The notes under the pieces are model-generated. The model did not search any database. It had not been told where the DNA came from and saw only the letters and a list, made by a program, of their open reading frames with translations. A program made the translations under genes and the position numbers. A stretch of DNA of 64,000 nucleotides from Promethearchaeota archaeon (lineage in GTDB: Archaea; Asgardarchaeota; Lokiarchaeia; Sigyniarchaeales; SOKP01). The stretch is from the NCBI GenBank assembly GCA_048937405.1, contig JBHLNF010000002.1, positions 501,462 to 565,461 on the forward strand. The letters are read 5' to 3'. Within the stretch, counting starts at the first letter, position 1. Every line of letters begins with the position of its first letter. This document shows, piece by piece, positions 4,959 to 29,187 of this stretch.

Positions 4959-5915
4959 ATGAATTTAACTCCTCAAATTATTTTAGACCAATTAGAGAGG
5001 AATGAAATAAGTAAATCTTTTGCTTTTGATCAATTAATCTCTTTTGTAGAAAACAGTGAAAATGAACAAATAAGAGAAGAAGCATTAGAAAATTTAGATC
5101 GGGTTGGAATTTATGATAATAAACTTTTTGAATTTTTAGAAAACATACTCCTTTCTGATTCAAATGAAAAAATCAGAAATGTCGTTTTGAAAATCATAGA
5201 AAGAAGATTTCTATACAAAGCAATTGCCCTTTTAAAGTGGGCTCTAAATCATGAGAAAGATTATGAATGCCTTGTTATCATAATCAAATCATTAAAAAAA
5301 GCTAATACTGAAGAGTCTAAAAGAATTTTATTTGATAAAACAAAGGAGATTATACACACTAAATATATCAATAAAGACAAAAGAATTGAAAATCGTAAAT
5401 TCAAATATATTTTAAAGAAATTATTAAAAACTAAGAAATATGAATTATTTACTCATAAAGAATTATCCCTTATTTTAATTAGTTTCATGACAATTATTAA
5501 TTTAACAAATTTATATCCAAATGTCTCTTATGAGATAAATCCAGAAAATGGATTGTTAAACGAATTAGATTTATCAGATTATTTTGAATATGAAGTGAAA
5601 GGGATACCTTTTGGATGGAAAAATAATATTAAATCAATTTCAGAAATAAAAGGTTTAATGTATTTAAAATCTCTCAAGAAAATTAATCTTTCAAACAATC
5701 TGATTGAAGATATTAAAGAATTAGTTTATTTAAAAAATATAACACATTTAACTCTTTCTAAAAATAATATTAGTAATGTCGAAAACATTGAATATCTTAA
5801 AAAATTCAAAAAACTAGAATATCTGGATCTAAGAGATAATGAAATTGCTACAAAAATTCAATCTAATGATTTTAATTCTAGTATAAGAGTTATTCTGAAA
5901 GATTCTTATATTTAA
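4959..5915 (+). CDS. HEAT-repeat plus leucine-rich-repeat protein
   Basis: N-terminal HEAT-like IREEALENL / DSNEKIRN; C-terminal LRRs LKKINLSNNLI, ITHLTLSKNNI, LEYLDLRDNEI. Confidence 0.8.
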   Translation: MNLTPQIILDQLERNEISKSFAFDQLISFVENSENEQIREEALENLDRVGIYDNKLFEFLENILLSDSNEKIRNVVLKIIERRFLYKAIALLKWALNHEKDYECLVIIIKSLKKANTEESKRILFDKTKEIIHTKYINKDKRIENRKFKYILKKLLKTKKYELFTHKELSLILISFMTIINLTNLYPNVSYEINPENGLLNELDLSDYFEYEVKGIPFGWKNNIKSISEIKGLMYLKSLKKINLSNNLIEDIKELVYLKNITHLTLSKNNISNVENIEYLKKFKKLEYLDLRDNEIATKIQSNDFNSSIRVILKDSYI

Positions 5916-5927
5916 AAAAAAAGTAGA

Positions 5928-7265
5928 TTATTTTTCAATTAATTGTGTTTTTCCCGTCCCCCATACTCCAAGGGCGACACCTAATTCCTTCTTCTCTTTA
6001 GCTACGTCTTTTACGTTCTTACCCTCCATAACCGCATCTATTGCTTGTCTAAAAGCAATAGCGCCAGCTATAGGCCCATCAGGATGACTATGGATACCAC
6101 CTCCACTTCCAATAAGGATATCCGTTCCAGCTTCTTTTATACATTTCTCAACCATTCCTTGTGTTATTCCACCACTAGGCATTGGGAGTGTTGGTTTAAT
6201 GTTTTGTAATGAATATCGAAGGGCCTTAAGATTTTGCTCATATCTTTCTTCTAATATTTCTGCCTTTCCATATGGGGCAGGGATGACTACTATATCAGCA
6301 CCACAAATCCGTGGTAATTTTGCAAATGTTAACATACTAGTCATTCCTGTCCATTCTCCTCCAAAATATGTACCACCAAAATCCATGTGTCCTAGAATTG
6401 GAACATTTATTGAAGGATCCTCTGCTATTTGTCTCAGAGCTTCATAACCAGTAGCTAAATAATTTATCATCAAGGCATTGGCACCTAATTCGATCATCTT
6501 ATCCGCGTGTTCAAATATATCTGGGAATTTAGAGGTAATATTGATAGTATATAAAGTTTTTTCGCCTTTCTCTGCGTCTGCTTTGTCAACAGCTTCCATA
6601 ACCTTGACAATTCGCTCTTCAAGTCTATTAAAGGAGGGATCTGAGATTAATTCATCATCTTTTACTACATCGCAACCACCGACTGCAGCTTTATAAACTA
6701 AATCTGCAGCTACATCTGCTGTATGCCCCGTACACGGTTTAACCATATTATTCAAAAGTGGACGTGTAGGAATATTCATAAGTTTCCTAATTCCATCAAT
6801 TCCAAATTTAGGACCTTTAAAATCTTCTAACCAAGCTTTAGGAAATGCTAAATCAACCAACTTTAAACCGTGAGTTATACTAATATTTCCAATTACTGTT
6901 GTGAATAACATTGGAATCCCCATTCCCTTAATATTTATGATAGGAAATCCGATTTGAACGAAGTATGTTCTTTCTTTAATATCTTTAGGGATAACATATT
7001 CATACATAGGAAGTTCATATACGCCAAGTACTCTAGCAACATGGTATTTTCTCACTTCTTCTGTTTCAGCTGGAACTCTAATCCAAGTTCCAGTGGATTG
7101 TTCAATTGCAGCAAAACGGGATAAGTAATTAACATTTTGGCCTTTAGGACGTTTAATAATGTATGAAGCAATTATATATTTTTCTATATCAATTCCATCT
7201 AACATAGCTTCTGGAACATCATAATATTGCTCACAAGAGGGAAATTCTCCTTCCATTTTAATCAC
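5928..7265 (-). CDS. RuBisCO-like protein (form IV)
   Basis: EQSTGTW, FKGPKFG, VKP, GGCDVVKDDE, PSGG and GGGIHSHPDG motifs; bona fide RuBisCO motifs KPK and HRA read KPC and HMD. Confidence 0.9.
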   Translation of the reverse strand: MIKMEGEFPSCEQYYDVPEAMLDGIDIEKYIIASYIIKRPKGQNVNYLSRFAAIEQSTGTWIRVPAETEEVRKYHVARVLGVYELPMYEYVIPKDIKERTYFVQIGFPIINIKGMGIPMLFTTVIGNISITHGLKLVDLAFPKAWLEDFKGPKFGIDGIRKLMNIPTRPLLNNMVKPCTGHTADVAADLVYKAAVGGCDVVKDDELISDPSFNRLEERIVKVMEAVDKADAEKGEKTLYTINITSKFPDIFEHADKMIELGANALMINYLATGYEALRQIAEDPSINVPILGHMDFGGTYFGGEWTGMTSMLTFAKLPRICGADIVVIPAPYGKAEILEERYEQNLKALRYSLQNIKPTLPMPSGGITQGMVEKCIKEAGTDILIGSGGGIHSHPDGPIAGAIAFRQAIDAVMEGKNVKDVAKEKKELGVALGVWGTGKTQLIEK

Positions 7266-7366: not shown

Positions 7367-8494
7367 TTAAACTTCAGTTTTAGCAGCTTCTTTTGCAGCA
7401 GCTTTGGCTACAGCTTTAATATCACTGTAAGAATTTTCCAGTACTGTTAAATATTCAACTAATACTTGACTTGCTTTTGATTTCTGATCGTATACTTTCT
7501 TGATAGTGTTAAGTAGATATTTAGGAAATACGAGATCTAAGTAATAATCTGAAAGAAGTGCATAGTATTCATTATTTCTATCATCTTGGAATACTTGAAT
7601 CATCTGAGTATCCCAAAGCAACTTTAATACATCATCTAAGTCATCGACGCCTTTCTTTCTTAACTTCTCAAGGTCATTCTTGGTTACTATTGCTGTCCTT
7701 AATAATCGCAATGTTTCATACACTTGTGGATTAATTAGTATATCTATTATCCTAAGATTGTCTCCTTCTGATGGACGATAATTTTGAAAGTATTTCTTTA
7801 CTTCCATCTTATAATCCTCCTCAAGTTGTGAAGGTAAACCTCGATTGGAGGGATCACTATAAATTTTAACAGGAGGTACTCTTAATGCAACAACATCTTG
7901 AATTAAAAAGATTAATTCCGATGGCATACCTTTTACAGAAGTTTCTTTTACAATTTCTCGTTTAATCAGCTCTGTTAAAACGCCTTCTAGATCAACAAAA
8001 CCTTGTTTATATTGATCTTTAAGCCATACCATTAATTCAGATTTAGAAACTACACCCTCATCTCTTAAGCGACTAATTATTAATCTTTTAATCTCATCTT
8101 GATAGGTGATAGCAAGACGTTGCTCATTATTGAGTGTGGGATACACAGATAATCTTCTAAAAAGATCAGGGATCATTGGTACATAGGCATCATCTGTTAT
8201 ATTTTGAAGAATTATTCGAGAAATGTCTATTAATCCTCCTTCATAAGCGTCGGGATCATCATCTAAACTTAAAAGTAAAAGAATATAAAAGCCTTTATCA
8301 GGACCAGTGTAATATGAAGCGATATTTAAAGATCCTATCATTAGACTGATCATCCCGGATTCACCACTGTATTCATGAGTGCTATATACTTGCATAAGAG
8401 TTTTATCAGTTATATTTAACTCTTCTGGATATTTCGCGAGGATCTCAGTTCCAACTCGTTCATCCCATCTCATTATTGCTAATCCAACAGGCAT
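7367..8494 (-). CDS. Cytosolic longin/uDENN-like protein, copy A
   Basis: N-terminus MPVGLAIMRWDERVGTEILAKYP resembles the longin/uDENN start (hhhhxFDxxxGPxhxxxYP); obvious paralog of 14278..15387. Confidence 0.6.
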   Translation of the reverse strand: MPVGLAIMRWDERVGTEILAKYPEELNITDKTLMQVYSTHEYSGESGMISLMIGSLNIASYYTGPDKGFYILLLLSLDDDPDAYEGGLIDISRIILQNITDDAYVPMIPDLFRRLSVYPTLNNEQRLAITYQDEIKRLIISRLRDEGVVSKSELMVWLKDQYKQGFVDLEGVLTELIKREIVKETSVKGMPSELIFLIQDVVALRVPPVKIYSDPSNRGLPSQLEEDYKMEVKKYFQNYRPSEGDNLRIIDILINPQVYETLRLLRTAIVTKNDLEKLRKKGVDDLDDVLKLLWDTQMIQVFQDDRNNEYYALLSDYYLDLVFPKYLLNTIKKVYDQKSKASQVLVEYLTVLENSYSDIKAVAKAAAKEAAKTEV

Positions 8495-11400
8495 TAGTCA
8501 GCACCTCCTTTAAATTCTTCTTTTACTTCAGGTAATTTCATCTTCTTTTTCTCTTTGACTCCCATAATATCCTCCAAAGATAATCCAATCGAATCCCATT
8601 TATCTCCTAGTTTCTTCACTATAAATTCTTCTTTTGAAGGATAAAGTAAGGAATCGGATATAATTTTATTTCCCTTAATGCTTTTCTTCATTGATCTCGA
8701 CTTCTTGACAAATGTAGGGATTCTCCGTTGCTGAACTATACGATATGCAGTAAGACTTCCCGCAACAGCTATTATTGATCCTATAATCATTACAAAATAG
8801 AATGTTGGGAAACCAAATATTTCTTGCATATTAACTACTATAGTAATAGTTGAAGATTTGGTCTCAAAGTATTGCTTTTCGATTGTTAGTGTAGCTGTAA
8901 ATGTTTCAGGCACAAAGAATGGATTAGAAATTGCAGGTATATTAACTATATAAGAACCATCACCATTATCAGTAAAAACATAAGTTTCATCTCCAAGTGT
9001 TAAATAAACGCTTGCTCCTGTAATTGGTGCCGAATTATTATTGGGATCTGTAAGATCTATTGAAAATTGTAATGTTTTTCCTGCATCTATTTCAATCTTA
9101 GAATCTAAAAGTAACTCAGGCCAACCAATATCTATAATTCTTTCCAAAATCGTTAAAGAAACTATCGCAATTCTGTATTCATAATTTTTTTTAGCAAGTG
9201 TAACTATCACAGAATATTCTCCATCGTGTCGTAATTCTGTATCAAGATCTAACACGAATTCATTGCCTATTGGGATTAGTGAACCTATTTCTGAAGTGCC
9301 TTGAATTGGATCACCATTTTCATCCAATTCTTGCATTATATAACTCATTTCATCTAAATTTGAGATTGGACTATTCCTCAAAACATCTGTATAATCAAAA
9401 GAAAAATTAAGTTCTTCAAAGATATAAATTGATTCAGAAACATACACTATTCCTGTCGAGTCTTCCGTACTGGTTGGTCTAGTTAATATAGTTATGAAAA
9501 AATCAAAATTTACAATTTCGGTATAGTTCTCACGTCTAGCAGTAAATTCTAAATGATATGTACCAACATTCTCTACTACTGAAGTATCAAGTTCTAATAT
9601 ATAATATTCAGAATTTATTGGATCTGGGCTTAAAGTACCTGAACCATAGTCCCAATCATAAGTGAAAGATTCTGGAGTTAAAGAATTATTATTGCTTGCA
9701 TCATAGTATTTTAAGGTTATATTTATTAATTCATCATAATATTCTGAAATTGAATTACTTTCTAACTCATCTAATGTTTCATAATCATGTATGCTCATTC
9801 CTGTTGGTCTTGAATTTATTGTGATTTCAGCAAATATAGGGATAGGATCAACATATCCTAGTTTACTTCCAGTTATTTCAACCGAATATATTTCATAATT
9901 ATTTCCAGCTGAGAACTCATATGAAGGAATTGTCACTGTAAAAACTCCATCAGTAACAAAATTCATATCATAAGATTTAATTCCCCCTATTGTACAAATT
10001 ATTTCATCAGGATCATCTAGACCTACCCAGTTAGCCCCAACTCCAGCTTTAATCGTAAAATTAACAGAGAAGGTCATGTCGCTTCCCCAAATTACAGCAG
10101 TATCTCCTGAATAATCAATAAACATTGATTGGTAATCATCGATATTTATTAGTAACTTAAATACAAGTGAAGTATTGAATCTTAAAGAATAATTGTAGTG
10201 ATTAACTAAACTTGGAGATGGATCATATTGATCTGTTTTATTTACTAAAAAGTTTTTATCACTACCACCATAGAAGTTTAAACTAAAAGTGTAGTTTTCT
10301 GTTGGATTTCTTACATACCAGAAATCTGATTCGGAATTGATCTGTCCATGAGCATATCCTTCACTATCTGTAATCAAGTTTGTAATTGAATCTCCAGTAG
10401 AATTCTTAACTTTAACGATACAAGATTGGACAGGTATAATTTCATCGCTTGTATCAATTACTCGAATCTGTAATTTAGCCATTGAAGTTTTATTATATAT
10501 ATTGCATGTTTCAACGGTCTCTACTAAAATTGTACCATTACATTGAGTAAGAGTTGTACTATTAAAACCCCGAACGTCAATCAACAATCCATATGCTTGG
10601 AAATTATCATTTATTAAATTAATGCTTTCTTCAGGTGTATCACGTATATTAATCGAGATAAAATCTTCCTGTCCTCCAGAATATGAATCATTAAAATAGA
10701 TAAGACTGTTATCATCCCAATTTCCATCTTCATCCAAATAATATATTTTTACAGTATCGAGAAAATCCGTCATTTTTTCTATTGTTATATTAGCTTGAAG
10801 CAGTCTTTTATTACTAACGTCTGTGGTTGAGCCATTTGTGTATATATATTCAATAACCCTATATTCTGATCCCGGAGGATTCATTATATTAGATTGATTC
10901 ACTAATATTATATGGTTATAGTATTTTTCATTTAAAGCATCATAAGTATCTCTATAAACATAACTTTCATTCAAGTGAATAGGAATAGTACTATTATAAT
11001 CTTCGTTATCATAGGATATGTTATAGTAATATTGAGATTGATTTTTCCAAACAAAAGTTCCTTTTCCATCGATGAGTCTTATATGATCTATAACGGGATT
11101 CGTTGGGGAGTCACTTACGTTAACATAGGAATACCCTAATGGATTATTATCCCAATCAACTATTTCAAAGTCAATAGTCCACAAATTAACATAGACATCC
11201 ATTTCGTTTCTAATATATGTAAATGTATACATATCAGCATCAGGTGTTCCGAAATTCTCCTCTGTACTATTGTAAGCAAGATATTCCATTCCAGAGCTGG
11301 TATCATTGTATTTTACAGTAATATTATATGTACCTGCAGGAACTTTTTTAAAAGTTACAGAACCATCATCTCCAGTTTTTCCAGTAGTATAAACTTCAGG

Positions 11401-12672
11401 TACAGACATATTGACTAATGATAAGTATGCATTAGGTACAAATCTTCCATCTACATCATACACAGTTAGTACCAAATTTTCAATAATTCCTTTATATTGT
11501 TCTTCATTTAATTCTGCAGGAATCGCTGATAAATTATAGATTGACTCAACATCATAAGTAGAGAGACCATATTGGAAAATCCTTACATCATCTATTTCTC
11601 CATTCCAATGGTAATTATCATTAATTGGCCAACTTGATATCTGAAATCGTCTACTTGTTGATGTAGGATTATTATAAAATGCGGTTCCAGCTAACTGACC
11701 ATCAATCCAAAATTTTGAGGTTTGAATACTTCCACCAATATTTTCCCATACATAGTGGTGCCATTCGCCATCAGTTGGATATGGTACTCTTTGGGATAAC
11801 TCATCATAATATGGATTTCCACTCCCATCACCTCTATTATTATATATAAAACCTCCAGAATGATATGGGTCCATATCTGTTCCACTGTTTCTATCTATCG
11901 ACCAAGGCATTTGACCAGATCCTCCACCTTTTGTCCAACCTGCTACGATTAAGGTATCTCCACAATAAAATCCATCAAAGTGAATGTGATCATCCTGAAC
12001 ATTTCCATCAAGATCAACTGAACCCCCTACCTTCCCATCAGTGACGTATGTTGGAGTATTTTGAAAATCACCATTTATATTACCGATTGAATCTTCAGCT
12101 TCATAAGGTCCTGGCATATCCTCATCTAATCTCCACCAGTTTGTTCCAAAACGACTATTTTTATTATAATATGCAGTAGCCATTCCTACGGTATCATTTC
12201 CATAATACATATATGTATCAAGTTCTAGACTTGAAGCGCTAAGATTTGTTTCAAACCAAACAGTTGCTAAACTTGCATTTGGATAATCTATTTGAATGAT
12301 GTAATTTCTAATAGTGTTGTTTTCTATTATTCTTACATCCTTTAAGGTGCTATTCATCTTTCCGGCATTAACATAATCTGAATAATTGAACGTTATTGAT
12401 ACAATGGTGTCTACTAAATCTACAGCATGTGGATTAGTAATATTTATTAATCGTCTATACGTAAAAGAACTATTCCACCAAGCATCTTCACCAAGAGCAG
12501 CATTTTTTAATGTTGATTTAAGATTGGTTTTGTCATTAGATTTACTAACATCATTAATATTTTCTGAATTAATAGAATTTTGAGGAAATAGTGTTAATCC
12601 CGAACTTATCAAAAAAATCAACAGTAATGAAATTGAAAATACCATTCGCGATTTTTTATTTTTTGTTTTCAT
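8494..12672 (-). CDS. Large single-pass surface glycoprotein A (DUF2341-like, LamG/ConA domain, beta-sandwich stalk, TM helix, cytoplasmic tail)
   Basis: N-terminal hydrophobic signal; WWNSSFTYRRLINI...YMYYGN; LamG motifs DGEWHHY and WNGEIDDVRIF; many NxS/T sequons; TM FYFVMIIGSIIAVAGSLTAY followed by a basic tail of about 75 aa. Confidence 0.8.
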   Translation of the reverse strand: MKTKNKKSRMVFSISLLLIFLISSGLTLFPQNSINSENINDVSKSNDKTNLKSTLKNAALGEDAWWNSSFTYRRLINITNPHAVDLVDTIVSITFNYSDYVNAGKMNSTLKDVRIIENNTIRNYIIQIDYPNASLATVWFETNLSASSLELDTYMYYGNDTVGMATAYYNKNSRFGTNWWRLDEDMPGPYEAEDSIGNINGDFQNTPTYVTDGKVGGSVDLDGNVQDDHIHFDGFYCGDTLIVAGWTKGGGSGQMPWSIDRNSGTDMDPYHSGGFIYNNRGDGSGNPYYDELSQRVPYPTDGEWHHYVWENIGGSIQTSKFWIDGQLAGTAFYNNPTSTSRRFQISSWPINDNYHWNGEIDDVRIFQYGLSTYDVESIYNLSAIPAELNEEQYKGIIENLVLTVYDVDGRFVPNAYLSLVNMSVPEVYTTGKTGDDGSVTFKKVPAGTYNITVKYNDTSSGMEYLAYNSTEENFGTPDADMYTFTYIRNEMDVYVNLWTIDFEIVDWDNNPLGYSYVNVSDSPTNPVIDHIRLIDGKGTFVWKNQSQYYYNISYDNEDYNSTIPIHLNESYVYRDTYDALNEKYYNHIILVNQSNIMNPPGSEYRVIEYIYTNGSTTDVSNKRLLQANITIEKMTDFLDTVKIYYLDEDGNWDDNSLIYFNDSYSGGQEDFISINIRDTPEESINLINDNFQAYGLLIDVRGFNSTTLTQCNGTILVETVETCNIYNKTSMAKLQIRVIDTSDEIIPVQSCIVKVKNSTGDSITNLITDSEGYAHGQINSESDFWYVRNPTENYTFSLNFYGGSDKNFLVNKTDQYDPSPSLVNHYNYSLRFNTSLVFKLLINIDDYQSMFIDYSGDTAVIWGSDMTFSVNFTIKAGVGANWVGLDDPDEIICTIGGIKSYDMNFVTDGVFTVTIPSYEFSAGNNYEIYSVEITGSKLGYVDPIPIFAEITINSRPTGMSIHDYETLDELESNSISEYYDELINITLKYYDASNNNSLTPESFTYDWDYGSGTLSPDPINSEYYILELDTSVVENVGTYHLEFTARRENYTEIVNFDFFITILTRPTSTEDSTGIVYVSESIYIFEELNFSFDYTDVLRNSPISNLDEMSYIMQELDENGDPIQGTSEIGSLIPIGNEFVLDLDTELRHDGEYSVIVTLAKKNYEYRIAIVSLTILERIIDIGWPELLLDSKIEIDAGKTLQFSIDLTDPNNNSAPITGASVYLTLGDETYVFTDNGDGSYIVNIPAISNPFFVPETFTATLTIEKQYFETKSSTITIVVNMQEIFGFPTFYFVMIIGSIIAVAGSLTAYRIVQQRRIPTFVKKSRSMKKSIKGNKIISDSLLYPSKEEFIVKKLGDKWDSIGLSLEDIMGVKEKKKMKLPEVKEEFKGGAD

Positions 12673-13177
12673 TTTTACTTGCCAATTTTATTAAATTTTT
12701 TTTTAAAATACTTAATAACAAAGATATTTGTTATCATTAAATATGCAAATTGTATTATTTAACTTTTTATTTTTCAGCTCTACTTATAAAAAATACATAA
12801 TTTGTGTCAATAAAAATCAGATTAGAAACAAAAAACCATTAATAGAATTTCTTGTTATTGACTTATGGCTTAGATGGAAAGTGCTATATTCTTAAAAATT
12901 ATAATATAAAATAAATTGTTAAATTCTCATAACTGAATAATTATATAAAAATATATTCATAACTGTTTTGGGCAATTATCTAATTTACTGATTTCAGATT
13001 TAAAATAATTAAATAATTCTTTTTATAATTACTCATGTTTAATTTTTTCTAAAAATTTAAATATTTTGATTAAGATCGAAGATTCAAAGAAGAATATCAA
13101 AGAAAGGTTTTTATTCTTAAAAAAGAATTTTTAATCTTTTTTAGTATTATATTTTCATTAGATTTAGGCAGAAAATC

Positions 13178-14218
13178 ATGTTGAGGCAAGTTTATATTTT
13201 AAAAGATGAAAAGGTTATCTACAATAAAAATTTTGGAAAAGCTGTACCCTCAGAGGATTTTAATAAACTCTATCAAGAGATTATTGATGCTTCTTCCAAA
13301 GGGACTGGAATAGAACTTAATAGTTATGACTATATTCAATATAAAATAGTATTTTCATTAGTTCAGGACTCAGGATTAATGTTTATGTTTATAACTGATC
13401 TGAATGATAATCTAAGACAAACAAAAAAGGAATTAACAACATTAGAGAAGGAATTTTTAGAAACATTTGGTGAAAATATGGAAAATTTGGATCCTTCTCT
13501 TTTGGAGTTGCTCGATCCTATATTGGATTCGATTCATAGAAATCTTAAAACAAAGATTTCTTTAGTTGGATTTTCTGGAGTGGGAAAAACAACAACAACA
13601 ACACTAATATGTGCTACTGAGATTCCTTCTGTACATATTCCTACTATTACTGGTAAAATTTCAACAGTAAAAATTGGTAAATTATATTTTCATTTATGGG
13701 ATTTTGCTGGACAAGAGCAATTTAGTTATTTATGGAATGATTTTATTTTAGGCAGTGATGCAGTTCTCGTAATAACTGATTCCACATTAGAAAACGTGGA
13801 GAAGAGCAAGTTTTTCATTGAATTGATAAAAGAGCATGCTCCTTATGCTCATACAGCAATAATTGGAAATAAACAAGACTTACCTGACGCATTAAATGTC
13901 GAAAAAATTCAAGAGATAATCGGATTAAAAACATATTCTATGGTAGCTATTGACCCAAATAATCGAGATAAAATGATCCAAATAATTGCAGATATCTTAG
14001 AGATAAGCACTGATGCTTCTCCCTTATTAAAACCTTTATTTGAAAGGGATCAACTAATCCAGCAAGCAAAAATCAGTTTAGAAAATGGAGATATTTCTAA
14101 GACTGCAGAATATTTCGAAAGATTATCTGATTTATGCCTTGAATTAGGAGATGATATTCTTTATAAGGAATTTTATGAAAAAGCTAAGAAATTGAAAGGA
14201 TACTTAACCAATCAGTAA
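13178..14218 (+). CDS. Small GTPase with N-terminal longin-like domain and C-terminal helical hairpin
   Basis: G1 GFSGVGKTT, G2 PTI, G3 WDFAGQ, G4 NKQD; about 120-aa longin-like N-terminus. Confidence 0.85.
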   Translation: MLRQVYILKDEKVIYNKNFGKAVPSEDFNKLYQEIIDASSKGTGIELNSYDYIQYKIVFSLVQDSGLMFMFITDLNDNLRQTKKELTTLEKEFLETFGENMENLDPSLLELLDPILDSIHRNLKTKISLVGFSGVGKTTTTTLICATEIPSVHIPTITGKISTVKIGKLYFHLWDFAGQEQFSYLWNDFILGSDAVLVITDSTLENVEKSKFFIELIKEHAPYAHTAIIGNKQDLPDALNVEKIQEIIGLKTYSMVAIDPNNRDKMIQIIADILEISTDASPLLKPLFERDQLIQQAKISLENGDISKTAEYFERLSDLCLELGDDILYKEFYEKAKKLKGYLTNQ

Positions 14219-14277
14219 ACTCTAAAATAATGATTTTTCTTTCAATTATCAAATAAAAAATATTAAAAAAAAATATA

Positions 14278-15387
14278 TTATTCTTTTTCTATTTCAGCTG
14301 TTAATTTCATAGATCGATAGTTATCATCAAGAACGTTTAGATATTCAATCAAAACAGCCTCTGATTTTGACTTTACACCATATTGATAAATTATTGTGTT
14401 TAACATATATTTAGGATAAATTAATGAATTAAAAAAATCAGTAAGTAACGCATAATACTCATTTCCTTTAGTATCTTGAAAAACATGAATCATCTGATTA
14501 TCCCACAATACCTTCAAACCACCATCTATATCATCTACACCTTTTTTTCTGAGTTTCTCTAATACATTCTTTGTTACTATTGAAATTCTTAATAGCTTTA
14601 AAATTTCATAGATCTGGGGATCTGCAATTATTTCATCTAAAACCTTGAGATTATCTTCCTCAGTTGGTTGATAATTTTGAAAATAATTTTTAACAGCAAC
14701 TTTATACTCTTCAATAAATTTTTCAGGAAGTCCACGTTCTACTGGATTTTTGAGCAATTTGATTGGAGGTCTTCTAATCATAAAAAGATCATTGATTAAA
14801 AATATCAATTCCGAAGGCATTCCTTTTACCGATGTTTCTTTAATGATTTCTTTTTTAATTAATTCAGTTAAAATAGCATCTACATCAAAAAATCCTTCTC
14901 TATATTTATCTTTTAACCATATTTTCAATTCAGATTTCGTTATCACACCTTCCTCTCTAAGCCTATTAATAATTAGCCGGTTTACACCATCCAAATACGT
15001 GACAGCAAGATTTTGTTCTTCATTTAAATTAGGATAAGTCGATAATCTCTGGAATAAGAAGGGGATCATTTCTAAATATGCATTATCACTGTAATTTTGG
15101 AAAATTACCCGTGAAATATCTGATAATCCCCCTTCAAAAGAATCAGCATCTTCGTCTAAATTTAGGAGTAAAATAATATAAAGAGGTTTCTCTCGACCTG
15201 TATAATATGAAGCAATATTTAGCGGGCCTACTAATAAACTGATCATCCCTGGTTCCCCTGTATATTCATGCGCTGCATAGATTTGCATCAAAGTTTCATC
15301 ACTAATAATCAGTTCTTCAGGATATTTTGCAAGAATCTCAGTACTAACTTTAATATCCCATCTCATAATAACTAATCCAATTGGCAT
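14278..15387 (-). CDS. Cytosolic longin/uDENN-like protein, copy B
   Basis: Long identical blocks with 7367..8494 (TEILAKYPEEL, LNIASYYTG, KETSVKGMPSELIFLI, LEKLRKKGVDD, NEYYALL). Confidence 0.6.
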   Translation of the reverse strand: MPIGLVIMRWDIKVSTEILAKYPEELIISDETLMQIYAAHEYTGEPGMISLLVGPLNIASYYTGREKPLYIILLLNLDEDADSFEGGLSDISRVIFQNYSDNAYLEMIPFLFQRLSTYPNLNEEQNLAVTYLDGVNRLIINRLREEGVITKSELKIWLKDKYREGFFDVDAILTELIKKEIIKETSVKGMPSELIFLINDLFMIRRPPIKLLKNPVERGLPEKFIEEYKVAVKNYFQNYQPTEEDNLKVLDEIIADPQIYEILKLLRISIVTKNVLEKLRKKGVDDIDGGLKVLWDNQMIHVFQDTKGNEYYALLTDFFNSLIYPKYMLNTIIYQYGVKSKSEAVLIEYLNVLDDNYRSMKLTAEIEKE

Positions 15388-18300
15388 TATTCAATGTCAC
15401 CTCTTTGTTCTTTTAACTTATCTTTTATTGGTAATTTCTTTTTTAATTCTTCAATTCCTAAAGATTTCTCAATTGATAAATCAATTTGTTTCCAATCATC
15501 ACCGAATAGTTTTGCTATCATCTCTGCTTTAGATGGAACAGATATTATTTCGGTAATTTTCTTTTTCGATTTAATTAATCCTTTAACTTTTCTGATCTTT
15601 TTGACATGTTTAGGGATTCTGGCCTGTTGTATAACTCTATATGCTACTAAACTTCCTAATATACCGATTATTGATGCAGTGATCAATATAAAGTAGAATG
15701 ATGGCATTCCAGGAAAAATTTCCTCCATATTTACGGTAATTGTAACTGTGATTTCTTGTCTAGTGAAGTTATCAGCCTCAATGTAAATTTTACCTACAAA
15801 GGTTCGTTCACTTAAAAAAGTATCAATATTACTAGTTATTAATGTTAAAGTGTATAAGCCTGCAGTAGTATCAGATGGATCAAAAGTATGATTAACTCCT
15901 CTAAAAGCAAATTTAATTGTGGCGCCTTCTAATTCTATATCTCTGGTAGTATCCCATAAACTTATCTCAAAATCAACATCAGTTCCATGTTCGATCTGGA
16001 TTTGGTTATTGCTTCCTAATTGAAGGCTCTCAATTGTTGGTTCAAAATTCCTTAACATAATTTCTAAATTAATGAGAGCAGATTTTGCTTTGTAGTTTTG
16101 TTTTTGAAGTGTAACATATAAGTAATAATAACCAACAGATCTTATTTCAGTCTTAAAATCTAAAATAAGAGTATTATTATTATTTTGGAAAAGTGTTCCA
16201 GAACCATGTATTCCAGGAATTCTTGTACCGTTTGCATATAATTCTTCCCAAGTATATGTGGCAGTTGTTAAATTACCAATATAAGCTTCTGTAATTTCGT
16301 CTTGGTAAAAAAATTCGAAAGGATTAGGATCTTCAACCCATACTTTGGAATTAATATAGACTAAATCAGTTTCACCATTAAGAGTTGTTATTCTCTCGTT
16401 GATATTTAGAGATGTATATAATGTCTGAGATGTATGATTTTCATTCTTTGCTATAATTTCAATTGATTTTGTACCCCATACTTCTGCAATTGTAGTATTT
16501 ATTGTTGCTGTATAATACCCATCATTGATTGGATCTTCGAAGAATTGAATAGGATCTAAATTCAACCATTCATAAGTTAATACTGCGCCTTTTAATGGTG
16601 CTTCTGTAAATGAATTATAATATTTTACGGTTAAATTAACCATTTCGCCAAATATTTGAGAAAAATTAGTAATTTCTGTTAAATTATTATAATAATCGTG
16701 CATAGTTATATTAGTTGGAATAGTATCTATGAAAATTGAGTCACTTAAATTAGTTGGAGGTGAATATCCAACTTTATTTCCAGAGATAATAATGCTGTAG
16801 AGTCTACCTCTTTCACCAGCTGATAATTGAGCAGAATCAAATGTATAATCAAATATTCCATTTTCTTGTGGATTCATTTCAAGTTCTAATACAACATGAC
16901 TTCCTGGTCCAGTTGTTTTAATAGTACAAAATACATTTGCGGGAAGAGTAACAGGTTCTGAGGTATCCCACCCATCTTCTGTTAATGAGAAGTTTACCTG
17001 AATTGTAATATCTTGATCCCATATTACCGTTTCTTGAGTGATTAAGTCTTTAAACTTAGTTTGATAATCACTTGCATTTATATCTACACCTAGAAATATT
17101 TCAAAAATAAGCTCTGTTGAATTTTTTAAAGTATAATTATAAAAAGGAATATTTACACCTTGCTGGAATGTTTGATCTGATTTATTTACTATTAAATTCT
17201 TATGCGATCCAAAAAATACTAATGAAAAATTATATTCGAAACCTCTTAAATACCAAAGTGGTAGCTCTGTATTTATTTGTCCATATGCATATCCAGTAAA
17301 GTCTCTTGTTAATAAATCGTTAGTTACATTAAACAATCCATCTCTATTTGTACTATTTACTTTTATAAGGCAACCAGAAACACCTGCACCAACAGCATCA
17401 ATAATTTTAATATTCAGTTTACATAAATCCGTAACATTGTAAATATTACAAGTTTCATTAAAACTAACATTGATTTTACCCCAAACGTTTGATGAATTTA
17501 TACCTGTAGTAACAATTTTCAAGCCATAAACCTCATACTTATCTCCAGCTAAACTACTAGGCTTTTCGGGAGGTGCTCTCATATCTATCTGTATACGATA
17601 CAGATCTTCTCCTGCTGTGTTATTATAATAAACTCGATAATTATCATTGGTATAATTATTTTTATCTATATAATAAACTGAGATAGAACTTATTGTTGTT
17701 GAGCCTCTTGGAGCTGTAACATTTATTTCAGCTGAAATTATCTTTTTATTTCCAAGTTCAGTACGTGATCCATTCGTATAAAATAACTCATCAACAGTAA
17801 ATGTAGAAGGGGATGCAGACCAAGGAATCGTTTCATTTAAAGATACAGACTTTTGCTGAATCTTATCACCGATTATATCATAATTAGCCCTTGTTATCCA
17901 ACTCTCATTTAGCGCAGTAGGGTTCAAGTTATAATCGGGGTTATCATAAAATACTTTATAGTAATATTTATCTTTATTTATCCAGCGAAACGTAGCTTTT
18001 CCATCTGAGTTAAGGGTTAAATTATCTAGAAATCCACCCCCTTTAGTATAGTTAACTTCAATGTATCCATAGTTTAAGGGTTCCTTTCCATAATCAACTA
18101 TCTCAAAATCAATAGTCCATAAATCCACCTTGACGTCAAAACTATGAATAGATTTGTAAATTTTGAAATCACTTCCTCCCCCCTCGCTACTATTATACAC
18201 TACAGTTTCATTTCCGGTGTATTCTATTGTATAATTTACCACAATATCATAAGTTTTATAATCAACATCCGTAAAGACTGCACTTCCCTCATCTGTGGAA

Positions 18301-19694
18301 GTGTTTTGTGTATCAATTATGGGGTCTGGTAATGAATAATTCACCAAAGAGACTTCTGCATTAGGAACGATTCTTCCATCAATATCTTTAACTATTACAG
18401 TAACTTCTGATCTTCTTTCTTCAATATCTGAATCTAAATCTACCTGTAAAGTATAGTTGAACCTTACATCATCTACTTGACCAAATGCACTAAATGCTGC
18501 AAATTCATCAGTATGGGTATAAATCCCAAATTCCAAAAAAACTGTTAAGCCTTCATAATCTGATAGGTCGATATTAATATAACCTGTTAATCCTGGAGAA
18601 ATTGCTGCTGTATCAACTGATGGAGTCCCAGAAGGATGAACTCCTGCCCAAGTTGGTAGATCGGAAACTTTCGTCCCCTCGCCAAGGCTGTCCCACAATT
18701 CTACATTAAAAAGTTCTTCATGTAAATTCACATTTTCACTGTAAGTTGTAGCAATTCGAACAAAGTATCCAAAAACTTTTGATTTAGAAGAATCATACAT
18801 CCTGATATTACGCCAAGCATTTATACCCATACGACCACCGGTAACTTTTGGTACCTTAAACGGATAACTAAATAAAGTTCCTACTATATCATCTCCTATA
18901 CCCCCACTTGAGACATCGTGAGAAATATCACCCCATTTAAATGCATAAGACCCTTGCTCCACATGTTCTTGGGCTATAAGGGAATTAGATAAATTGTGTT
19001 GATAATAATCAGGTGTCATAGATGTTGGAGTATATGGCACATTAAGGTCATCTGGAACATCATCCGCATAATACCAACCAAATGTATTATTAATTTTAGT
19101 ACCAGTTACAATATCTTGTTCAAAATTACCATTTCTTATCCATCCGAAATTATCAGCAGCCGAAGCTGAAGATTCATTCATGAAATAGGTTGTATCAATC
19201 TCAACTTCATCATTACCATAATATAAATAGGTGTCATATTCTGTTGAACTAGCTGATATATTTGTATCAAACCAGACTGTTGCTATATTTGGTGAGGGAT
19301 AATTCTTTTGAAAATAATATTTTCTTATATGTGGATTATTAGCAGAGTCGTATTCAATGATTCTTATGTCTTTTAAACTTTTATTCATTCTGCCATCACT
19401 TACATAAGTATTATAAATAAATGAGATACTAACGCTATAGTTCTCAAAATCTACAGAATAAGGATTTGTAATATTAATAACTTGTCTAGATCGAAATGTT
19501 GTATTCCACCATGGGTGAGTGCCTGATAGCTTAATATTTAGATTGTTACCATCTTCAACTTCATTCAGTTCTTTTGTTTTAGATAAAGAATTTGAAATGT
19601 TTATTAAACAAATCGCATAAACGCTAGTAAACAACACAATTGAAATTAATGAAATTACTTTTAATCGTTGTTTTATTGGTATTATATTATTCAT
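15387..19694 (-). CDS. Large single-pass surface glycoprotein B (DUF2341-like, CBM-like jelly-roll, beta-sandwich stalk, TM helix, cytoplasmic tail)
   Basis: Paralog of 8494..12672 (LWTIDFEIVD, DGRIVPNA, ETCNIYN); tip domain IRNGNFEQ...VDDVRF differs; TM FYFILITASIIGILGSLVAY and tail. Confidence 0.8.
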   Translation of the reverse strand: MNNIIPIKQRLKVISLISIVLFTSVYAICLINISNSLSKTKELNEVEDGNNLNIKLSGTHPWWNTTFRSRQVINITNPYSVDFENYSVSISFIYNTYVSDGRMNKSLKDIRIIEYDSANNPHIRKYYFQKNYPSPNIATVWFDTNISASSTEYDTYLYYGNDEVEIDTTYFMNESSASAADNFGWIRNGNFEQDIVTGTKINNTFGWYYADDVPDDLNVPYTPTSMTPDYYQHNLSNSLIAQEHVEQGSYAFKWGDISHDVSSGGIGDDIVGTLFSYPFKVPKVTGGRMGINAWRNIRMYDSSKSKVFGYFVRIATTYSENVNLHEELFNVELWDSLGEGTKVSDLPTWAGVHPSGTPSVDTAAISPGLTGYINIDLSDYEGLTVFLEFGIYTHTDEFAAFSAFGQVDDVRFNYTLQVDLDSDIEERRSEVTVIVKDIDGRIVPNAEVSLVNYSLPDPIIDTQNTSTDEGSAVFTDVDYKTYDIVVNYTIEYTGNETVVYNSSEGGGSDFKIYKSIHSFDVKVDLWTIDFEIVDYGKEPLNYGYIEVNYTKGGGFLDNLTLNSDGKATFRWINKDKYYYKVFYDNPDYNLNPTALNESWITRANYDIIGDKIQQKSVSLNETIPWSASPSTFTVDELFYTNGSRTELGNKKIISAEINVTAPRGSTTISSISVYYIDKNNYTNDNYRVYYNNTAGEDLYRIQIDMRAPPEKPSSLAGDKYEVYGLKIVTTGINSSNVWGKINVSFNETCNIYNVTDLCKLNIKIIDAVGAGVSGCLIKVNSTNRDGLFNVTNDLLTRDFTGYAYGQINTELPLWYLRGFEYNFSLVFFGSHKNLIVNKSDQTFQQGVNIPFYNYTLKNSTELIFEIFLGVDINASDYQTKFKDLITQETVIWDQDITIQVNFSLTEDGWDTSEPVTLPANVFCTIKTTGPGSHVVLELEMNPQENGIFDYTFDSAQLSAGERGRLYSIIISGNKVGYSPPTNLSDSIFIDTIPTNITMHDYYNNLTEITNFSQIFGEMVNLTVKYYNSFTEAPLKGAVLTYEWLNLDPIQFFEDPINDGYYTATINTTIAEVWGTKSIEIIAKNENHTSQTLYTSLNINERITTLNGETDLVYINSKVWVEDPNPFEFFYQDEITEAYIGNLTTATYTWEELYANGTRIPGIHGSGTLFQNNNNTLILDFKTEIRSVGYYYLYVTLQKQNYKAKSALINLEIMLRNFEPTIESLQLGSNNQIQIEHGTDVDFEISLWDTTRDIELEGATIKFAFRGVNHTFDPSDTTAGLYTLTLITSNIDTFLSERTFVGKIYIEADNFTRQEITVTITVNMEEIFPGMPSFYFILITASIIGILGSLVAYRVIQQARIPKHVKKIRKVKGLIKSKKKITEIISVPSKAEMIAKLFGDDWKQIDLSIEKSLGIEELKKKLPIKDKLKEQRGDIE

Positions 19695-19874: not shown

Positions 19875-20510
19875 TTATTTTCCCTTTTCTAATAAAAGAT
19901 AAATTTTTCTCTTTTTTGCGCTATTAGGATTATCTATTATAAAGTTTCCATTAAAATCTGTTTTTTCAGCTATAATTTTGCCGATTCTATCTAAAATGTT
20001 TTTGTTTTTTGGATAAAATTGAATTATAACACGAGAATTAGGTTTTAAAATATTAAAAAAGGATTTAGACAAATTTATTAAATCCTTTTTCATTTGTTCA
20101 TTGTTAATATCTCTATATATCCATTGTAATGCTGAGATAGATATAATTGCATCAAATGTGTTCGGTTTAAATGGAGGAAAGCACATATCTGATACAATTG
20201 GATTTAAATCTTTTATATCATAATAATTTAAAAATGAACAAATAAGATCGATAGCCACTGTTTTATATCCTATCTCATTTAAATACATAGAAGCAAAACC
20301 TGGGCCACAACCAGCGTCTAAGATTATTGCATTACGTTTTTCAAGATTTAAAAGTTCTAAAACCCTGATCGTAATTTTTTCCTGTGTTTTTATTATACTT
20401 TTAGAGTTAGCATATTGTTTAAGAATATCTCCTTTAAAGTAATCTGAGACCTCAGAATATATCTCTTCTGGTCTTTCTCTCTTAACGTTAAAATCGTAAT
20501 TGTTATTCAA
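19875..20510 (-). CDS. Bud23/WBSCR22-like class I SAM-dependent SSU rRNA methyltransferase
   Basis: RPEE, RVLELLNL, ILDAGCGPG, FDAIISISALQW, QFYPKN and IDNPNSAKKRKIYLLL parallel eukaryotic Bud23 as recalled. Confidence 0.8.
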   Translation of the reverse strand: MNNNYDFNVKRERPEEIYSEVSDYFKGDILKQYANSKSIIKTQEKITIRVLELLNLEKRNAIILDAGCGPGFASMYLNEIGYKTVAIDLICSFLNYYDIKDLNPIVSDMCFPPFKPNTFDAIISISALQWIYRDINNEQMKKDLINLSKSFFNILKPNSRVIIQFYPKNKNILDRIGKIIAEKTDFNGNFIIDNPNSAKKRKIYLLLEKGK

Positions 20511-21229: not shown

Positions 21230-22165
21230 TTATTGAATTATCTGATGTATTAAATTCTCCATTTGAGGCTTTGCAGCTTCAATTTTATCTAGAATACTGA
21301 TTGTTTTTTTTAAATCTGACTTATCTTCTTCTACAATGAATAATAAATAGAACTCCAAATTGCCAAAATTAAGAACTTCAATTATACCGGAAAATCTCTT
21401 TCCATTTTCAAATTTATCTGAAAATTCTAAAAGAGTCCTATTTTCATTTACAACCCGTTTGTGCAATTCGATATATATTTCATATATCTTTAATTTCTCC
21501 GACAAGTGAAGATGGGGTCTATAATATTCCCCTAAAGTTATACCCTTTGCATCAAATAATGCAATTAAAATAGAGTTATAATTCTTACTTAATTCTGAAA
21601 ATAATTGAGACACCATTTCCATTTTTTCAAATAACATTGATAGACCACTTGAGAAAGCATCCATAACGGATTTTATATCATAAATTGTGGTTTCAAAGAA
21701 AAATATATCAAATGCATTTGAATATCTTGTTAATGCCTGCTTTAATGTAAGAATCCGTTTATTTATATCTTTATCATCAACAAGTTGAGGATCAAATTTA
21801 TGAAAAAGAATACATATTGGTATATATTCTTGTTCTTCTTTAAAAAAGAGTAATATTTCCTCTAAATAATCAATAGATTCAATATAACGATTAAAATCCT
21901 GAGCGTCTATAACATAATAAAGCAGATCTGTTCCCATTAGATACTTTTCTGGATGTTTTAAATATTCTTCCCTATATTGCTTCTGACCTCCAAAATCCAT
22001 CCTTGCAAATTCAATACCTAAAAATTTGAAAGAATCACGAGCAATTCTTCTTGTAGGTGTTAAGGTAGCAATCTCTTCTTCAAAACCGAAACGTTTTGTT
22101 ATTGCAGTTATTATACTGGTTTTTCCAGCATTATCTAAGCCCATTACACCAATTCTTTTTGTTAT
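21230..22165 (-). CDS. Arf/Rag-like small GTPase with C-terminal roadblock/longin-like domain; probable AUA start
   Basis: KRIGVMGLDNAGKTS, DFGGQ, HKFD, ETT; C-terminal ILIALFDAKGITLG. The beta-1 strand lies upstream of the annotated ATG 22144; SD AAGGTGAT precedes ATA at 22165. Confidence 0.85.
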   Translation of the reverse strand: MTKRIGVMGLDNAGKTSIITAITKRFGFEEEIATLTPTRRIARDSFKFLGIEFARMDFGGQKQYREEYLKHPEKYLMGTDLLYYVIDAQDFNRYIESIDYLEEILLFFKEEQEYIPICILFHKFDPQLVDDKDINKRILTLKQALTRYSNAFDIFFFETTIYDIKSVMDAFSSGLSMLFEKMEMVSQLFSELSKNYNSILIALFDAKGITLGEYYRPHLHLSEKLKIYEIYIELHKRVVNENRTLLEFSDKFENGKRFSGIIEVLNFGNLEFYLLFIVEEDKSDLKKTISILDKIEAAKPQMENLIHQIIQ

Positions 22166-27225: not shown

Positions 27226-29187
27226 CTAATTCAATTTGGATAAAATTTTACGTTTTTTAACAATTACGATTACAATTATACTTAGAAATCCGAATAAGAG
27301 ATGATAGTTACCAAAGGGGATTCTAAAACGACCTCCAGCTCCAAATCTAGCGGTCTCAATTTCTACTCTAACGGTATCAGAAATCCCAAAAACATATTCA
27401 TTATCATGGTATTCAATAGAGTAATCATAAATTCCTGTAGTAGTACTATTAATAGGAACTTGAATAATTGTTTCGTTGAGCCAACCCTGCCAATCCTGCC
27501 ATACAATAGAATGCCCAGTAGAATCATTAACCAATACTCGAAAAAATCCATTTTCAGAGTCATCATATATAGTCCAATTTATTAGTTCGTCATCATTTTC
27601 TTCAATTGATATATCTTTCGGGTGGTTTGAGGTTGGAATATTATTTTCACCCATCCATTGAAGATTTCCATCAGAATCAACTCTTTGTGCATAAATATCA
27701 CTTTCGGGTGTAATATCACCCCACATATCTAACTTACCAGTTCTAGAATCCTCCCACGTAATTATTGCTCCACCCTGACCATCAGCAACTATACCAGGTT
27801 GTTTTTGATCATAAAGAGCTGTAGCAATTGGAATACCATTTGTAGTCCATTGTATATTTCCATTTGAATCGATTCGTTGAGCATAAATGTCACTGTAAAA
27901 TTCTTCTGATCTTTCATCCTCCCATGTAATTATTCCACCTCCCACTCCATCACTGCACATTTGAATATTTTCTTTGGTAGCATTTACGGTGCATATAGCT
28001 ACGCCATTAGTAGTCCATAATATAGTTCCGCTTGGATCAATTCGTTGAGCATAAATGTCATAAATGCCTGATCTTGTATCTTGCCAAGTAATTAATGCAC
28101 CTCCTACTCCATCACTACAGATTTTCATATCATAAATATAATCTCCTGAAATTGAACATATTTCAACTCCATCTGTAGTCCATTGACCACCTCCAGTTGA
28201 ATTGATTCTCTGAGCATAAATACTAATACCGTCAAGATATAATCTATGATCAATCCAAGCAATTATTGCGCCGTTATTATCATCACTACAAATTTCAGGA
28301 CTAAATTGATCATAATAATGAGTACATACAGGTTCACCGTTAGCTGTCCAATTAATACCTCCAGAAGAATTAATTCGTTGAGCGTATATTTCTTGCTTAT
28401 CACCACCGCTAAGTCTCTTATCATCCCAAGCTATAATTGCCCCACCCTCTCCATCGCTACAAATTGCTGGATCTCCTTGACCAATACCTGCTATACATAT
28501 TGCTTCCCCATTAGACGTCCATTGAACCTGTCCTGTAGAATTAACTCTTTGAGCATAGATGTGTGGATTATATTCTTGCCTGCGATCCGTCCAAACGGCA
28601 ATTACTCCCCCATTTTCATCACTACATAAAACAGTTTTATGAATGTCTAGGGATGATTCTTCATTCGCATCACAGATTTCAACCCTCAACCCTGACCAGA
28701 GTCTTCCCCCATTTGGACTGATATGCATTCCATAAATATCAGGATCATATTCTCCCCAGGATATATACTGATAAATATCCCAAGTGAAAACAAAACCACC
28801 ATAACCATCACTCAATATTTCAAGGTTATATGCATCACCCATATCTACTGGTAACCCTTTTTCCCACCAAAGTAGATTTCCATCAGGATCAATACGTTGT
28901 GCAAAAACATCATTTCCCGCATCATTTCGTAAATCATACCACGCTATTATAGCGCCTCCTGCCCTATCGGTAGTTATTTTTGGTCTTGATTGATCACGAA
29001 CTTTGCTGCATATGGATATTCCATTTTCTGATGGAGCAGAAATCATTAAATTTGCCTCATCATCAAGATTTACATTTATATCATAAGTAAATTGATTAAA
29101 ACTTGCATAATAACTTATAAACATAGAAAATCCTAGTAGAACGGCAACAATTAGGAAAAATTTTCCTTTTTTAAATTCAGATTTCAT
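27226..29187 (-). CDS. Beta-propeller-repeat surface protein with C-terminal Loki-CTERM-like anchor
   Basis: Repeated SDGxGGAIIxWxDxR...IYAQRIxSxG...W; ends IPFGNY-TM-KKRK. Confidence 0.8.
   Translation of the reverse strand: MKSEFKKGKFFLIVAVLLGFSMFISYYASFNQFTYDINVNLDDEANLMISAPSENGISICSKVRDQSRPKITTDRAGGAIIAWYDLRNDAGNDVFAQRIDPDGNLLWWEKGLPVDMGDAYNLEILSDGYGGFVFTWDIYQYISWGEYDPDIYGMHISPNGGRLWSGLRVEICDANEESSLDIHKTVLCSDENGGVIAVWTDRRQEYNPHIYAQRVNSTGQVQWTSNGEAICIAGIGQGDPAICSDGEGGAIIAWDDKRLSGGDKQEIYAQRINSSGGINWTANGEPVCTHYYDQFSPEICSDDNNGAIIAWIDHRLYLDGISIYAQRINSTGGGQWTTDGVEICSISGDYIYDMKICSDGVGGALITWQDTRSGIYDIYAQRIDPSGTILWTTNGVAICTVNATKENIQMCSDGVGGGIITWEDERSEEFYSDIYAQRIDSNGNIQWTTNGIPIATALYDQKQPGIVADGQGGAIITWEDSRTGKLDMWGDITPESDIYAQRVDSDGNLQWMGENNIPTSNHPKDISIEENDDELINWTIYDDSENGFFRVLVNDSTGHSIVWQDWQGWLNETIIQVPINSTTTGIYDYSIEYHDNEYVFGISDTVRVEIETARFGAGGRFRIPFGNYHLLFGFLSIIVIVIVKKRKILSKLN

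Follow-up and report, generated by a model that had tools for sequence, protein, structure and literature searches.

Two copies of a surface protein and NPRL2-like longin partner module beside a longin-Arf-like GTPase in an Asgard archaeon, a candidate receptor-like unit

In the GATOR1/SEACIT complex, NPRL2 and NPRL3 act on the small GTPase RagA/Gtr1. Both proteins consist of an N-terminal longin domain followed by two or more winged helix-turn-helix domains (Levine et al., PMC3747258). Another longin complex, C9orf72-SMCR8 (CSW), is a GTPase-activating protein (GAP) for Arf GTPases, and the WD (W33-D34) and GP (G38-P39) motifs of C9orf72 are essential (PMC12290439). Asgard archaea encode dozens of small GTPases, as well as longin and roadblock proteins with unknown partners. 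NPRL2-like longin families have been reported from Asgard archaea by Liu et al. (bioRxiv 10.1101/2020.10.19.343400), who also found that longin fused to two-component domains. In that study most eukaryote-like genes were located outside conserved neighbourhoods, and the operons given differ from the module described here. The GTPase genes of MK-D1 are generally not in operons with longin/roadblock genes, and genome layout seldom helps in matching the two kinds of protein (Tran et al., PMC10933270). Novak et al. have described Asgard longins of the FLCN/SMCR8 type that carry an arginine finger and a GP motif. Here we describe a locus within a 64,000-nucleotide stretch of DNA, hereafter the window, from a Promethearchaeota archaeon (assembly GCA_048937405.1, contig JBHLNF010000002.1, positions 501,462 to 565,461). 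In this locus a gene pair encoding a giant single-pass surface protein and a longin-containing partner protein occurs twice, on either side of a gene for a longin-GTPase. Whereas NPRL2-like Asgard longins are already published, the module linking longin, surface protein and GTPase is apparently new, although this is not certain. In the literature searched, from which subscription journals were missing, no connection was made between a longin protein of this kind and either a giant single-pass surface protein or the GTPase subfamily described here.

The first-pass annotation of the window had drawn two surface/partner gene pairs with a single longin-GTPase between them, and all of these open reading frames (ORFs) were found where it had placed them. 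The features of the locus are as follows.

7367..8494, minus strand: partner A, 375 amino acids (aa); longin 1-120 (8135..8494), winged helix 1 (126-206), winged helix 2 (241-323) and a C-terminal helix
8492..8496, minus strand: stop/start overlap TAATG of surface protein A and partner A, with GGAGGTG upstream
8494..12672, minus strand: surface protein A, 1392 aa; N-terminal signal/anchor, sequon-rich ectodomain, one transmembrane (TM) helix and a basic tail
8497..8742, minus strand: cytoplasmic tail A, about 82 aa, net charge about +9
8743..8805, minus strand: TM helix of surface protein A (about residues 1290-1310), from a hydropathy scan
12673..13177, no strand: divergent intergenic region between the starts of surface protein A and the GTPase gene, 505 bp, 17% GC, probably a promoter region
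13178..14218, plus strand: longin-GTPase, 346 aa; longin about 1-110, Arf-like G domain about 116-270, helical C-terminal extension about 275-346
14278..15387, minus strand: partner B, 369 aa
15385..15389, minus strand: stop/start overlap TAATG of surface protein B and partner B, with AGAGGTG upstream
15387..19694, minus strand: surface protein B, 1435 aa, built like surface protein A
15390..15638, minus strand: cytoplasmic tail B, about 83 aa, net charge about +10

The longin-GTPase is the sole ORF of at least 60 aa in the gap between the two pairs. Partners A and B are 63% identical (E value 2e-178), and the surface proteins are 33% identical over their full length, TM helix and tail included. 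The two surface/partner junctions have an identical TAATG overlap of one base, preceded in both cases by a Shine-Dalgarno-like motif, which points to translational coupling of surface protein and partner. A third pair is encoded on another contig (contig 17) of the same genome. Since this third pair exists and the pairing recurs in most sampled loci of other genomes, the pair arrangement at the locus is not due to chance. The contig 17 module (L010:7202-13784) consists of a 1173-aa single-pass protein followed by a 375-aa partner paralog with 29% identity to partner A. The end of this paralog is overlapped by an ORF of 651 aa that has a TrmB-type winged helix at its N-terminus, and no GTPase is nearby.

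Gene fusions bear on how surface protein and partner belong together. An exhaustive search returned at least nine cluster representatives that are single polypeptides, comprising ectodomain, TM helix, a tail of about 100 aa and the partner domain. The initiator methionine of the partner is replaced in most of these fused forms, and they have a conserved linker in common. A genome of the same genus (G132) encodes a stop-free fused ORF of 2661 aa with a second fused copy alongside, and the fused partner domains form a clade of their own in a quick tree. Because relatives, also within the same genus, encode surface protein and partner as one polypeptide, the partner is a cytoplasmic domain split off from the receptor. 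The split partner probably stays on the tail, as suggested by the one-chain relatives, the TAATG coupling, the near-universal adjacency of the two genes and the opposite net charges of tail and partner (+9 and +10 for tails A and B, about -11 for the partner). Plexins are receptors that pass the membrane once and carry a cytoplasmic GAP domain acting on small GTPases. The fused forms resemble them in outline, with their large ectodomain, single TM helix and GTPase-regulator type of cytoplasmic domain. The folds are unrelated, however (RasGAP-like versus longin/winged helix), and the likeness is an analogy of design, not homology.

Surface proteins A and B begin with a hydrophobic segment, followed by the long ectodomain, the single C-terminal TM helix (about residues 1332-1352 in B) and the basic tail. 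Their ectodomains gave Pfam matches that were all weak (DUF2341, LamG-like and Ig/CarboxypepD_reg-like), and no name for the proteins was obtained from Pfam, NCBIfam or the ESM Atlas. Surface protein A contains 36 and surface protein B 47 N-glycosylation sequons (NxS/T), compared with about 19 expected in each from the shuffled sequence. Cytoplasmic tails of about 75 aa had been claimed for both; the tails are there, with a length of about 82-83 aa. Tail A has a juxtamembrane R-IP-x-FVKK motif and then a conserved ISDSLLYPSKEE...KWD.IGLSLED block, and a juxtamembrane motif (R/K)-IP-x-x-[IV]-[KR]-[KQ]-[IV] is common to the tails of all families sampled. In some orthologous tails (L042, L043 and L064), acidic proline-rich repeats of the EEPPEPE(R/I)EYPE type are inserted after the conserved tail block and add to the length, up to about 200 aa.

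The partner has hundreds of relatives, found in Asgard lineages exclusively and none of them named, and Pfam, NCBIfam and the ESM Atlas supply no family name. An AlphaFold2 model of the approximately 370-aa protein, built from a 61-sequence alignment, had a predicted local distance difference test score (pLDDT) of 96.3 and a predicted template-modelling score of 0.90. In the model, residues 1-120 have the longin topology beta-beta-alpha-beta-beta-beta-alpha-alpha, with strands at 4-11, 15-22, 47-53, 56-62 and 69-75 and helices at 30-43, 81-97 and 105-120. Comparison with solved longins gave Z scores of 10-11.9 and root-mean-square deviations (rmsd) of 2.6-3.6 A over 105-123 residues, in line with the longin fold anticipated for this protein. 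The best matches were GATOR1 chains, taken as NPRL2/NPRL3 from their chain length (7t3b_B, 9o5d_D, 9v0j_A and 8fw5_B, all of NPRL2 length; Z up to 11.9, rmsd 2.6-2.8 A, 118-119 residues); this rigid structural alignment (VIA-align) spans the longin only. GATOR1 chains were also the top matches of a full-length Foldseek search (probability 0.87-0.98 over 325-450 aligned columns, with a low TM-score). When modelled by itself (pLDDT 97.5), the C-terminal half forms a pair of ArsR/MarR-type winged helices (Z 9.5 and 8.1). Its best Foldseek match is the tandem winged-helix ESCRT-II subunit 2zme_A (E 2.9e-3, probability 0.98, TM-score about 0.2), and NPRL2/3 were not singled out by structure searches with this half alone. 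An N-terminal longin is absent from ESCRT-II subunits. A longin followed by two winged helices is the published layout of NPRL2/3, and the modelled partner thus shares this architecture. The protein had previously been described as longin/DENN-like, of which the longin stands and the DENN-like part does not. A DENN protein was rejected as a candidate, since the longin is followed by winged helices and a long helix without a DENN core; DENND1A/B align with the partner over the longin alone, and there was no Pfam DENN match.

The likeness to NPRL2-NPRL3 extends to the occurrence of the partner as paralog pairs and to its genomic tie to a small GTPase. In contrast to NPRL2-NPRL3, partners A and B gave no match to Pfam NPR2/NPR3 (scan E up to 1), the partner family profile found no NPRL2/3 match among PDB sequences, the longin lacks a near-invariant arginine, and a DEPDC5-like protein was not seen. 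Furthermore, the linked GTPase is Arf-like with an N-terminal longin instead of a Rag with a C-terminal roadblock, and the module has a giant single-pass surface protein as its tether or fusion partner. Conserved residues in the beta1-beta2 loop of the partner longin are W10 (in 56 of the 61 sequences), D11 (48) and G15 (56), and their W-D-x3-G spacing equals that of the essential W33-D34 and G38-P39 of C9orf72. An Arf-type, client-like GTPase is a further point in common with C9orf72-SMCR8. Unlike in C9orf72, T, A or V occupies position 16 in place of the GP-motif proline, a DENN-type C-terminal half is missing and no SMCR8-like arginine-finger subunit was identified. The resemblance to C9orf72 appears to be at the level of a motif only. 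Stand-alone proteins of 125-160 aa that match the partner longin alone were observed in the same genome (C9:44035-44415 and C16:73052-73429) and elsewhere (L056:10696-11178 and L058:10970-11416). In family f13 stand-alone longin genes are located directly upstream of the full-length partner gene, which makes their products candidates for a second longin subunit.

The gene between the pairs had been annotated as a longin-GTPase, which agrees with the profile matches of its two domains. Its G domain scores 68.7 bits against Pfam Arf (cut-off 22.3), Arf is the best family for all 21 of 21 orthologs, and the closest solved relatives are Arf1 and Arf6. The G motifs are intact: G1 is GFSGVGKT, G3 is WDFAGQ, including the glutamine, and G4 is NKQD. 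A profile of the first 118 or so residues matches sigma subunits of AP-2 (E 6.2e-7), AP-3 and AP-1 (up to 2e-3), followed by the longins of VAMP7, delta-COP, mu2 and MON1. The middle gene is therefore predicted, from sequence profiles, to encode a sigma-adaptin-type longin fused to an Arf-like G domain. Arf family members have an N-terminal amphipathic helix that is usually myristoylated at Gly2. Neither feature was found in the window GTPase, the N-terminus of which (MLRQ...) is a 110-aa longin. Points in common with Arf1 and the AP adaptor complexes on cargo tails are the Arf-like G domain, the longin of sigma-adaptin type and a membrane-protein tail with a short conserved motif; the system differs in that the longin is fused to the GTPase and that no large adaptin/coat subunits occur in the neighbourhood. 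A profile-profile comparison of the GTPase N-terminal domain with the partner longin was not significant (probability 0.2), so the two longins are not close relatives. A complex prediction for partner A and the GTPase, with alignments for both, scored 0.10 against a mark of 0.32, a result that counts neither for nor against binding.

The genome (4.47 Mb) has 47 small-GTPase ORFs, of which just five belong to the subfamily of the window GTPase. The four further paralogs, at C28:440383-443575, C18:200207-202045 and C10:9271-10626, adjoin neither partner nor surface genes; two of them are in tandem and two have long C-terminal extensions (451 and 612 aa). Another locus encodes a relative of the longin-GTPase with 571 aa (L049:4429-6144, minus strand); a surface-partner pair is 3.5 kb and a further partner-like gene 2.2 kb away. 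This relative lacks the catalytic glutamine and NKxD, and such degenerate G motifs suggest that it is probably a pseudo-GTPase.

The pairing had been expected to be conserved in other Asgard genomes, and it is so widely, up to gene fusion. Matches to the partner profile were obtained in 148 of 201 genomes across the phylum, representing 20 of 27 families, mostly in multiple copies. In a sample of 43 loci from 11 families, chosen as the best-scoring ones and containing 53 full-length partner copies, about 38 of the copies adjoin or are fused with a C-terminally anchored TM protein, as identified by a simple hydropathy rule. Of the 53 copies, 28 have a GTPase of the subfamily at a distance of up to 10 kb, and 20 at a distance of up to 1.5 kb. 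Direct neighbours of partner genes are found in families f7, f8, f12, f13, f15 and f19, in the following arrangements.

L060 (f13): surface gene, partner gene, GTPase gene
L057, L059 and L081 (f13): GTPase gene divergent from partner gene, then surface gene
L073-L075 (f7): partner gene, gene for a 2300-2400-aa surface protein, GTPase gene
L053-L055, L061 and L076-L079 (f8, f19, f12, f15): partner gene beside GTPase gene, without a surface gene

The GTPases neighbouring partners constitute one orthologous family with common motifs, including VAIDPxNR. Independently of gene order, phyletic profiles of the partner (match at E <= 1e-10) and of the GTPase family (strong match at E <= 1e-40) were compared over the 27 families; both are present in 17, both are lacking in six and four are discordant. 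By our own arithmetic, chance adjacency of this GTPase subfamily is well under 1% per gene, and with just five members in a genome of 4.47 Mb the repeated adjacency is far from chance. A regulator gene of the roadblock/longin superfamily beside a small GTPase gene is also known from MglB-MglA and from the Asgard operon of LAMTOR1-like protein, Rab-like GTPase and DENN (Liu et al.). Those systems, soluble or lipid-associated, lack the giant surface protein of the present module, in which a longin with two winged helices is combined with a different GTPase subfamily.

The locus was also compared between close relatives. Two genomes of the same genus (G049 and G192) and one of another genus (G065) keep the layout of pair B, GTPase on the opposite strand and pair A. 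In all three, surface protein A is reduced to 143-147 aa, which comprise a signal/TM segment, the TM helix and the conserved tail, without an ectodomain. These ectodomain-less orthologs (L064:10757-11200, L067:10832-11275 and L069:9506-9937) have retained the coupling to a well-conserved partner. In three further genomes of the same genus (G008, G171 and G177), pair A stands alone between the same methyltransferase and RuBisCO-like genes, and the GTPase is absent there. Partners A and B are old paralogs that form separate orthologous clades in the quick tree, and as the GTPase adjoins every partner of the B clade, the window GTPase travels with pair B. Identities between orthologs within the locus are 27-46% for the ectodomains, 61-74% for TM helix and tail (63-74% in surface protein A) and 72-92% for the partners, a pattern suggestive of an inner machine that is conserved and an outer face that varies.

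What these observations mean for the function of the module can be stated with different degrees of confidence. We lean towards reading it as a receptor-like unit, in which a tail-tethered longin/winged-helix module would be the platform for a dedicated Arf-like GTPase that it regulates or recruits. Each pair would then be one functional unit. Its outer part would be the giant, glycosylated and fast-evolving ectodomain, anchored by the single TM helix, and its inner part the conserved NPRL2/NPRL3-like longin with two winged helices, here a separate and translationally coupled protein that would be kept on the basic, conserved tail. The tethered longin platform would serve the longin-Arf-like GTPase encoded between the pairs, and would either set its nucleotide state, as a subunit of a GAP or GEF (guanine nucleotide exchange factor), or recruit it. 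Binding at the ectodomain would thereby be linked to the GTPase switch. A more far-reaching version of this is tentative, and we are rather doubtful of it: the module may be an archaeal prototype of receptor-coupled small-GTPase signalling, in which the ectodomain senses a ligand or contact and an NPRL2/C9orf72-like longin module passes this on to the nucleotide state of the Arf-like GTPase. If so, a surface-acting GTPase regulator of the longin type would predate eukaryotes and be a plausible forerunner of GATOR1, folliculin and CSW-type complexes.

The main rival runs in the opposite direction, with the GTPase and the longin adaptor sorting, positioning, clustering, internalising or shedding the surface protein, much as cargo tails are handled by Arf GTPases and adaptor complexes containing longins, and no signal being relayed. 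It would account well for the sigma-subunit matches of the GTPase longin, for the Arf-like G domain and for a juxtamembrane tail motif that is conserved phylum-wide like a sorting signal. The ectodomain-less variants point the same way, since retaining TM helix, tail and partner would be needless for a pure sensor. On the other hand, no recurrent coat, vesicle or other adaptor genes were found in the neighbourhoods surveyed, and the partner is closer to longin subunits of the GAP/GEF type than to adaptor subunits, by just about one Z unit; we judge this rival unlikely, though a serious contender. Quite improbable, in our estimate, is that the partner serves the surface protein only, as a scaffold or in its biogenesis, for instance as an ESCRT-II-like tandem winged-helix adaptor, and that the adjacent GTPase has no direct functional tie to it. 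The ESCRT-II match of the C-terminal half and the many pairs without a GTPase nearby are in its favour, but longin domains are typical GTPase platforms (PMC3747258). Moreover, GTPase orthologs lie directly beside partners in six families, in four of them (f8, f12, f15 and f19) without an adjacent surface gene, and the partner and GTPase families are concordant in 23 of 27 families. We give very little credence to a role of the partner as a membrane-tethered transcription regulator, the winged helices of which would bind DNA after release from the receptor tail. Both winged helices do match regulators of the ArsR, MarR and RosR type (Z 8-9.5), and weak ArsR-type matches were also obtained in a profile search. 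However, the would-be recognition helices (helix 3 of both winged helices) are neutral and hydrophobic, with a median net charge of 0, the wings are at -1, and the second winged helix is acidic (median isoelectric point 5.0), as is the protein as a whole (net charge about -11), which argues against DNA binding; this role was rejected on these grounds despite the fold match. In addition, the fused forms would need proteolytic release, and the winged helices of NPRL2/3 and ESCRT-II bind proteins.

Several observations weigh against the receptor-like platform that we prefer. The structural preference for GATOR1 chains is narrow, with VAMP7, Lst4, Ykt6, a Lokiarchaeal longin, DENND1A/B, FNIP2 and FLCN all within one Z unit of them; SNARE and adaptor longins are equally close. 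A single subunit of an NPRL2/3-type pair needs an arginine finger, and residues 1-120 of the partner hold no near-invariant arginine in the sequence alignment of 61 sequences (R13 occurs in 32). Together with the missing proline of the GP motif, this makes GAP catalysis by the partner alone doubtful; if it takes part in GAP chemistry, the partner would resemble the subunit that lacks the arginine finger. In the genome studied, four of the five GTPase paralogs lie apart from partner genes, and the third pair and a fourth partner paralog have no GTPase neighbour. Pair A is without a nearby GTPase in several close relatives (L063, L065, L066 and L042-L046), and the loci sampled were the best-scoring ones, from related genomes that are not independent. 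The gene-order link between partner and GTPase is frequent and old. It is not obligatory, given the paralogs away from partner genes, the third pair and fourth partner paralog without GTPase and the many lone pairs in the same family. For the coupling of GTPase and partner proposed in the first-pass annotation, gene order and co-occurrence support a link between the families, which does not extend to every pair or every GTPase paralog. The chain from ectodomain through tail and partner to the GTPase that it drew is a candidate mechanism.

The module is an exception to the mostly uninformative genome layout of Asgard GTPases. In it, a single GTPase subfamily, a single family of longin adaptors and a single class of membrane proteins are tied together by fusion, gene order and co-occurrence, which would place a eukaryote-like GTPase-regulator fold directly under the cell surface. 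The surface proteins may be among the 'complex surface proteins' on Lokiarchaeal cells (PMC9834061).

On one side the module is flanked by a gene for a RuBisCO large-subunit-like protein (5928..7265, minus strand; Pfam E 9.8e-48) and a gene for an LRR/HEAT-repeat protein (4959..5915, plus strand). The RuBisCO-like gene and a methyltransferase gene (19875..20510) are conserved borders of the locus in related genomes. A Gtr1/RagA-like GTPase (21230..22144, minus strand; Pfam Gtr1_RagA, E 5.4e-24) is encoded 1.5 kb past surface gene B, beyond the methyltransferase gene; among the loci surveyed, this GTPase did not recur next to the module. The window also encodes three secreted proteins with a C-terminal TM helix (27226..29187, 29177..30784 and 55968..57590, all on the minus strand). 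The first-pass annotation had contrasted these with surface proteins A and B, and the contrast holds, their basic tails being no longer than 10 aa, whereas the name 'Loki-CTERM' that it gave them was not confirmed by NCBIfam. One of the three contains delta-60/SBBP beta-propeller repeats (NCBIfam).

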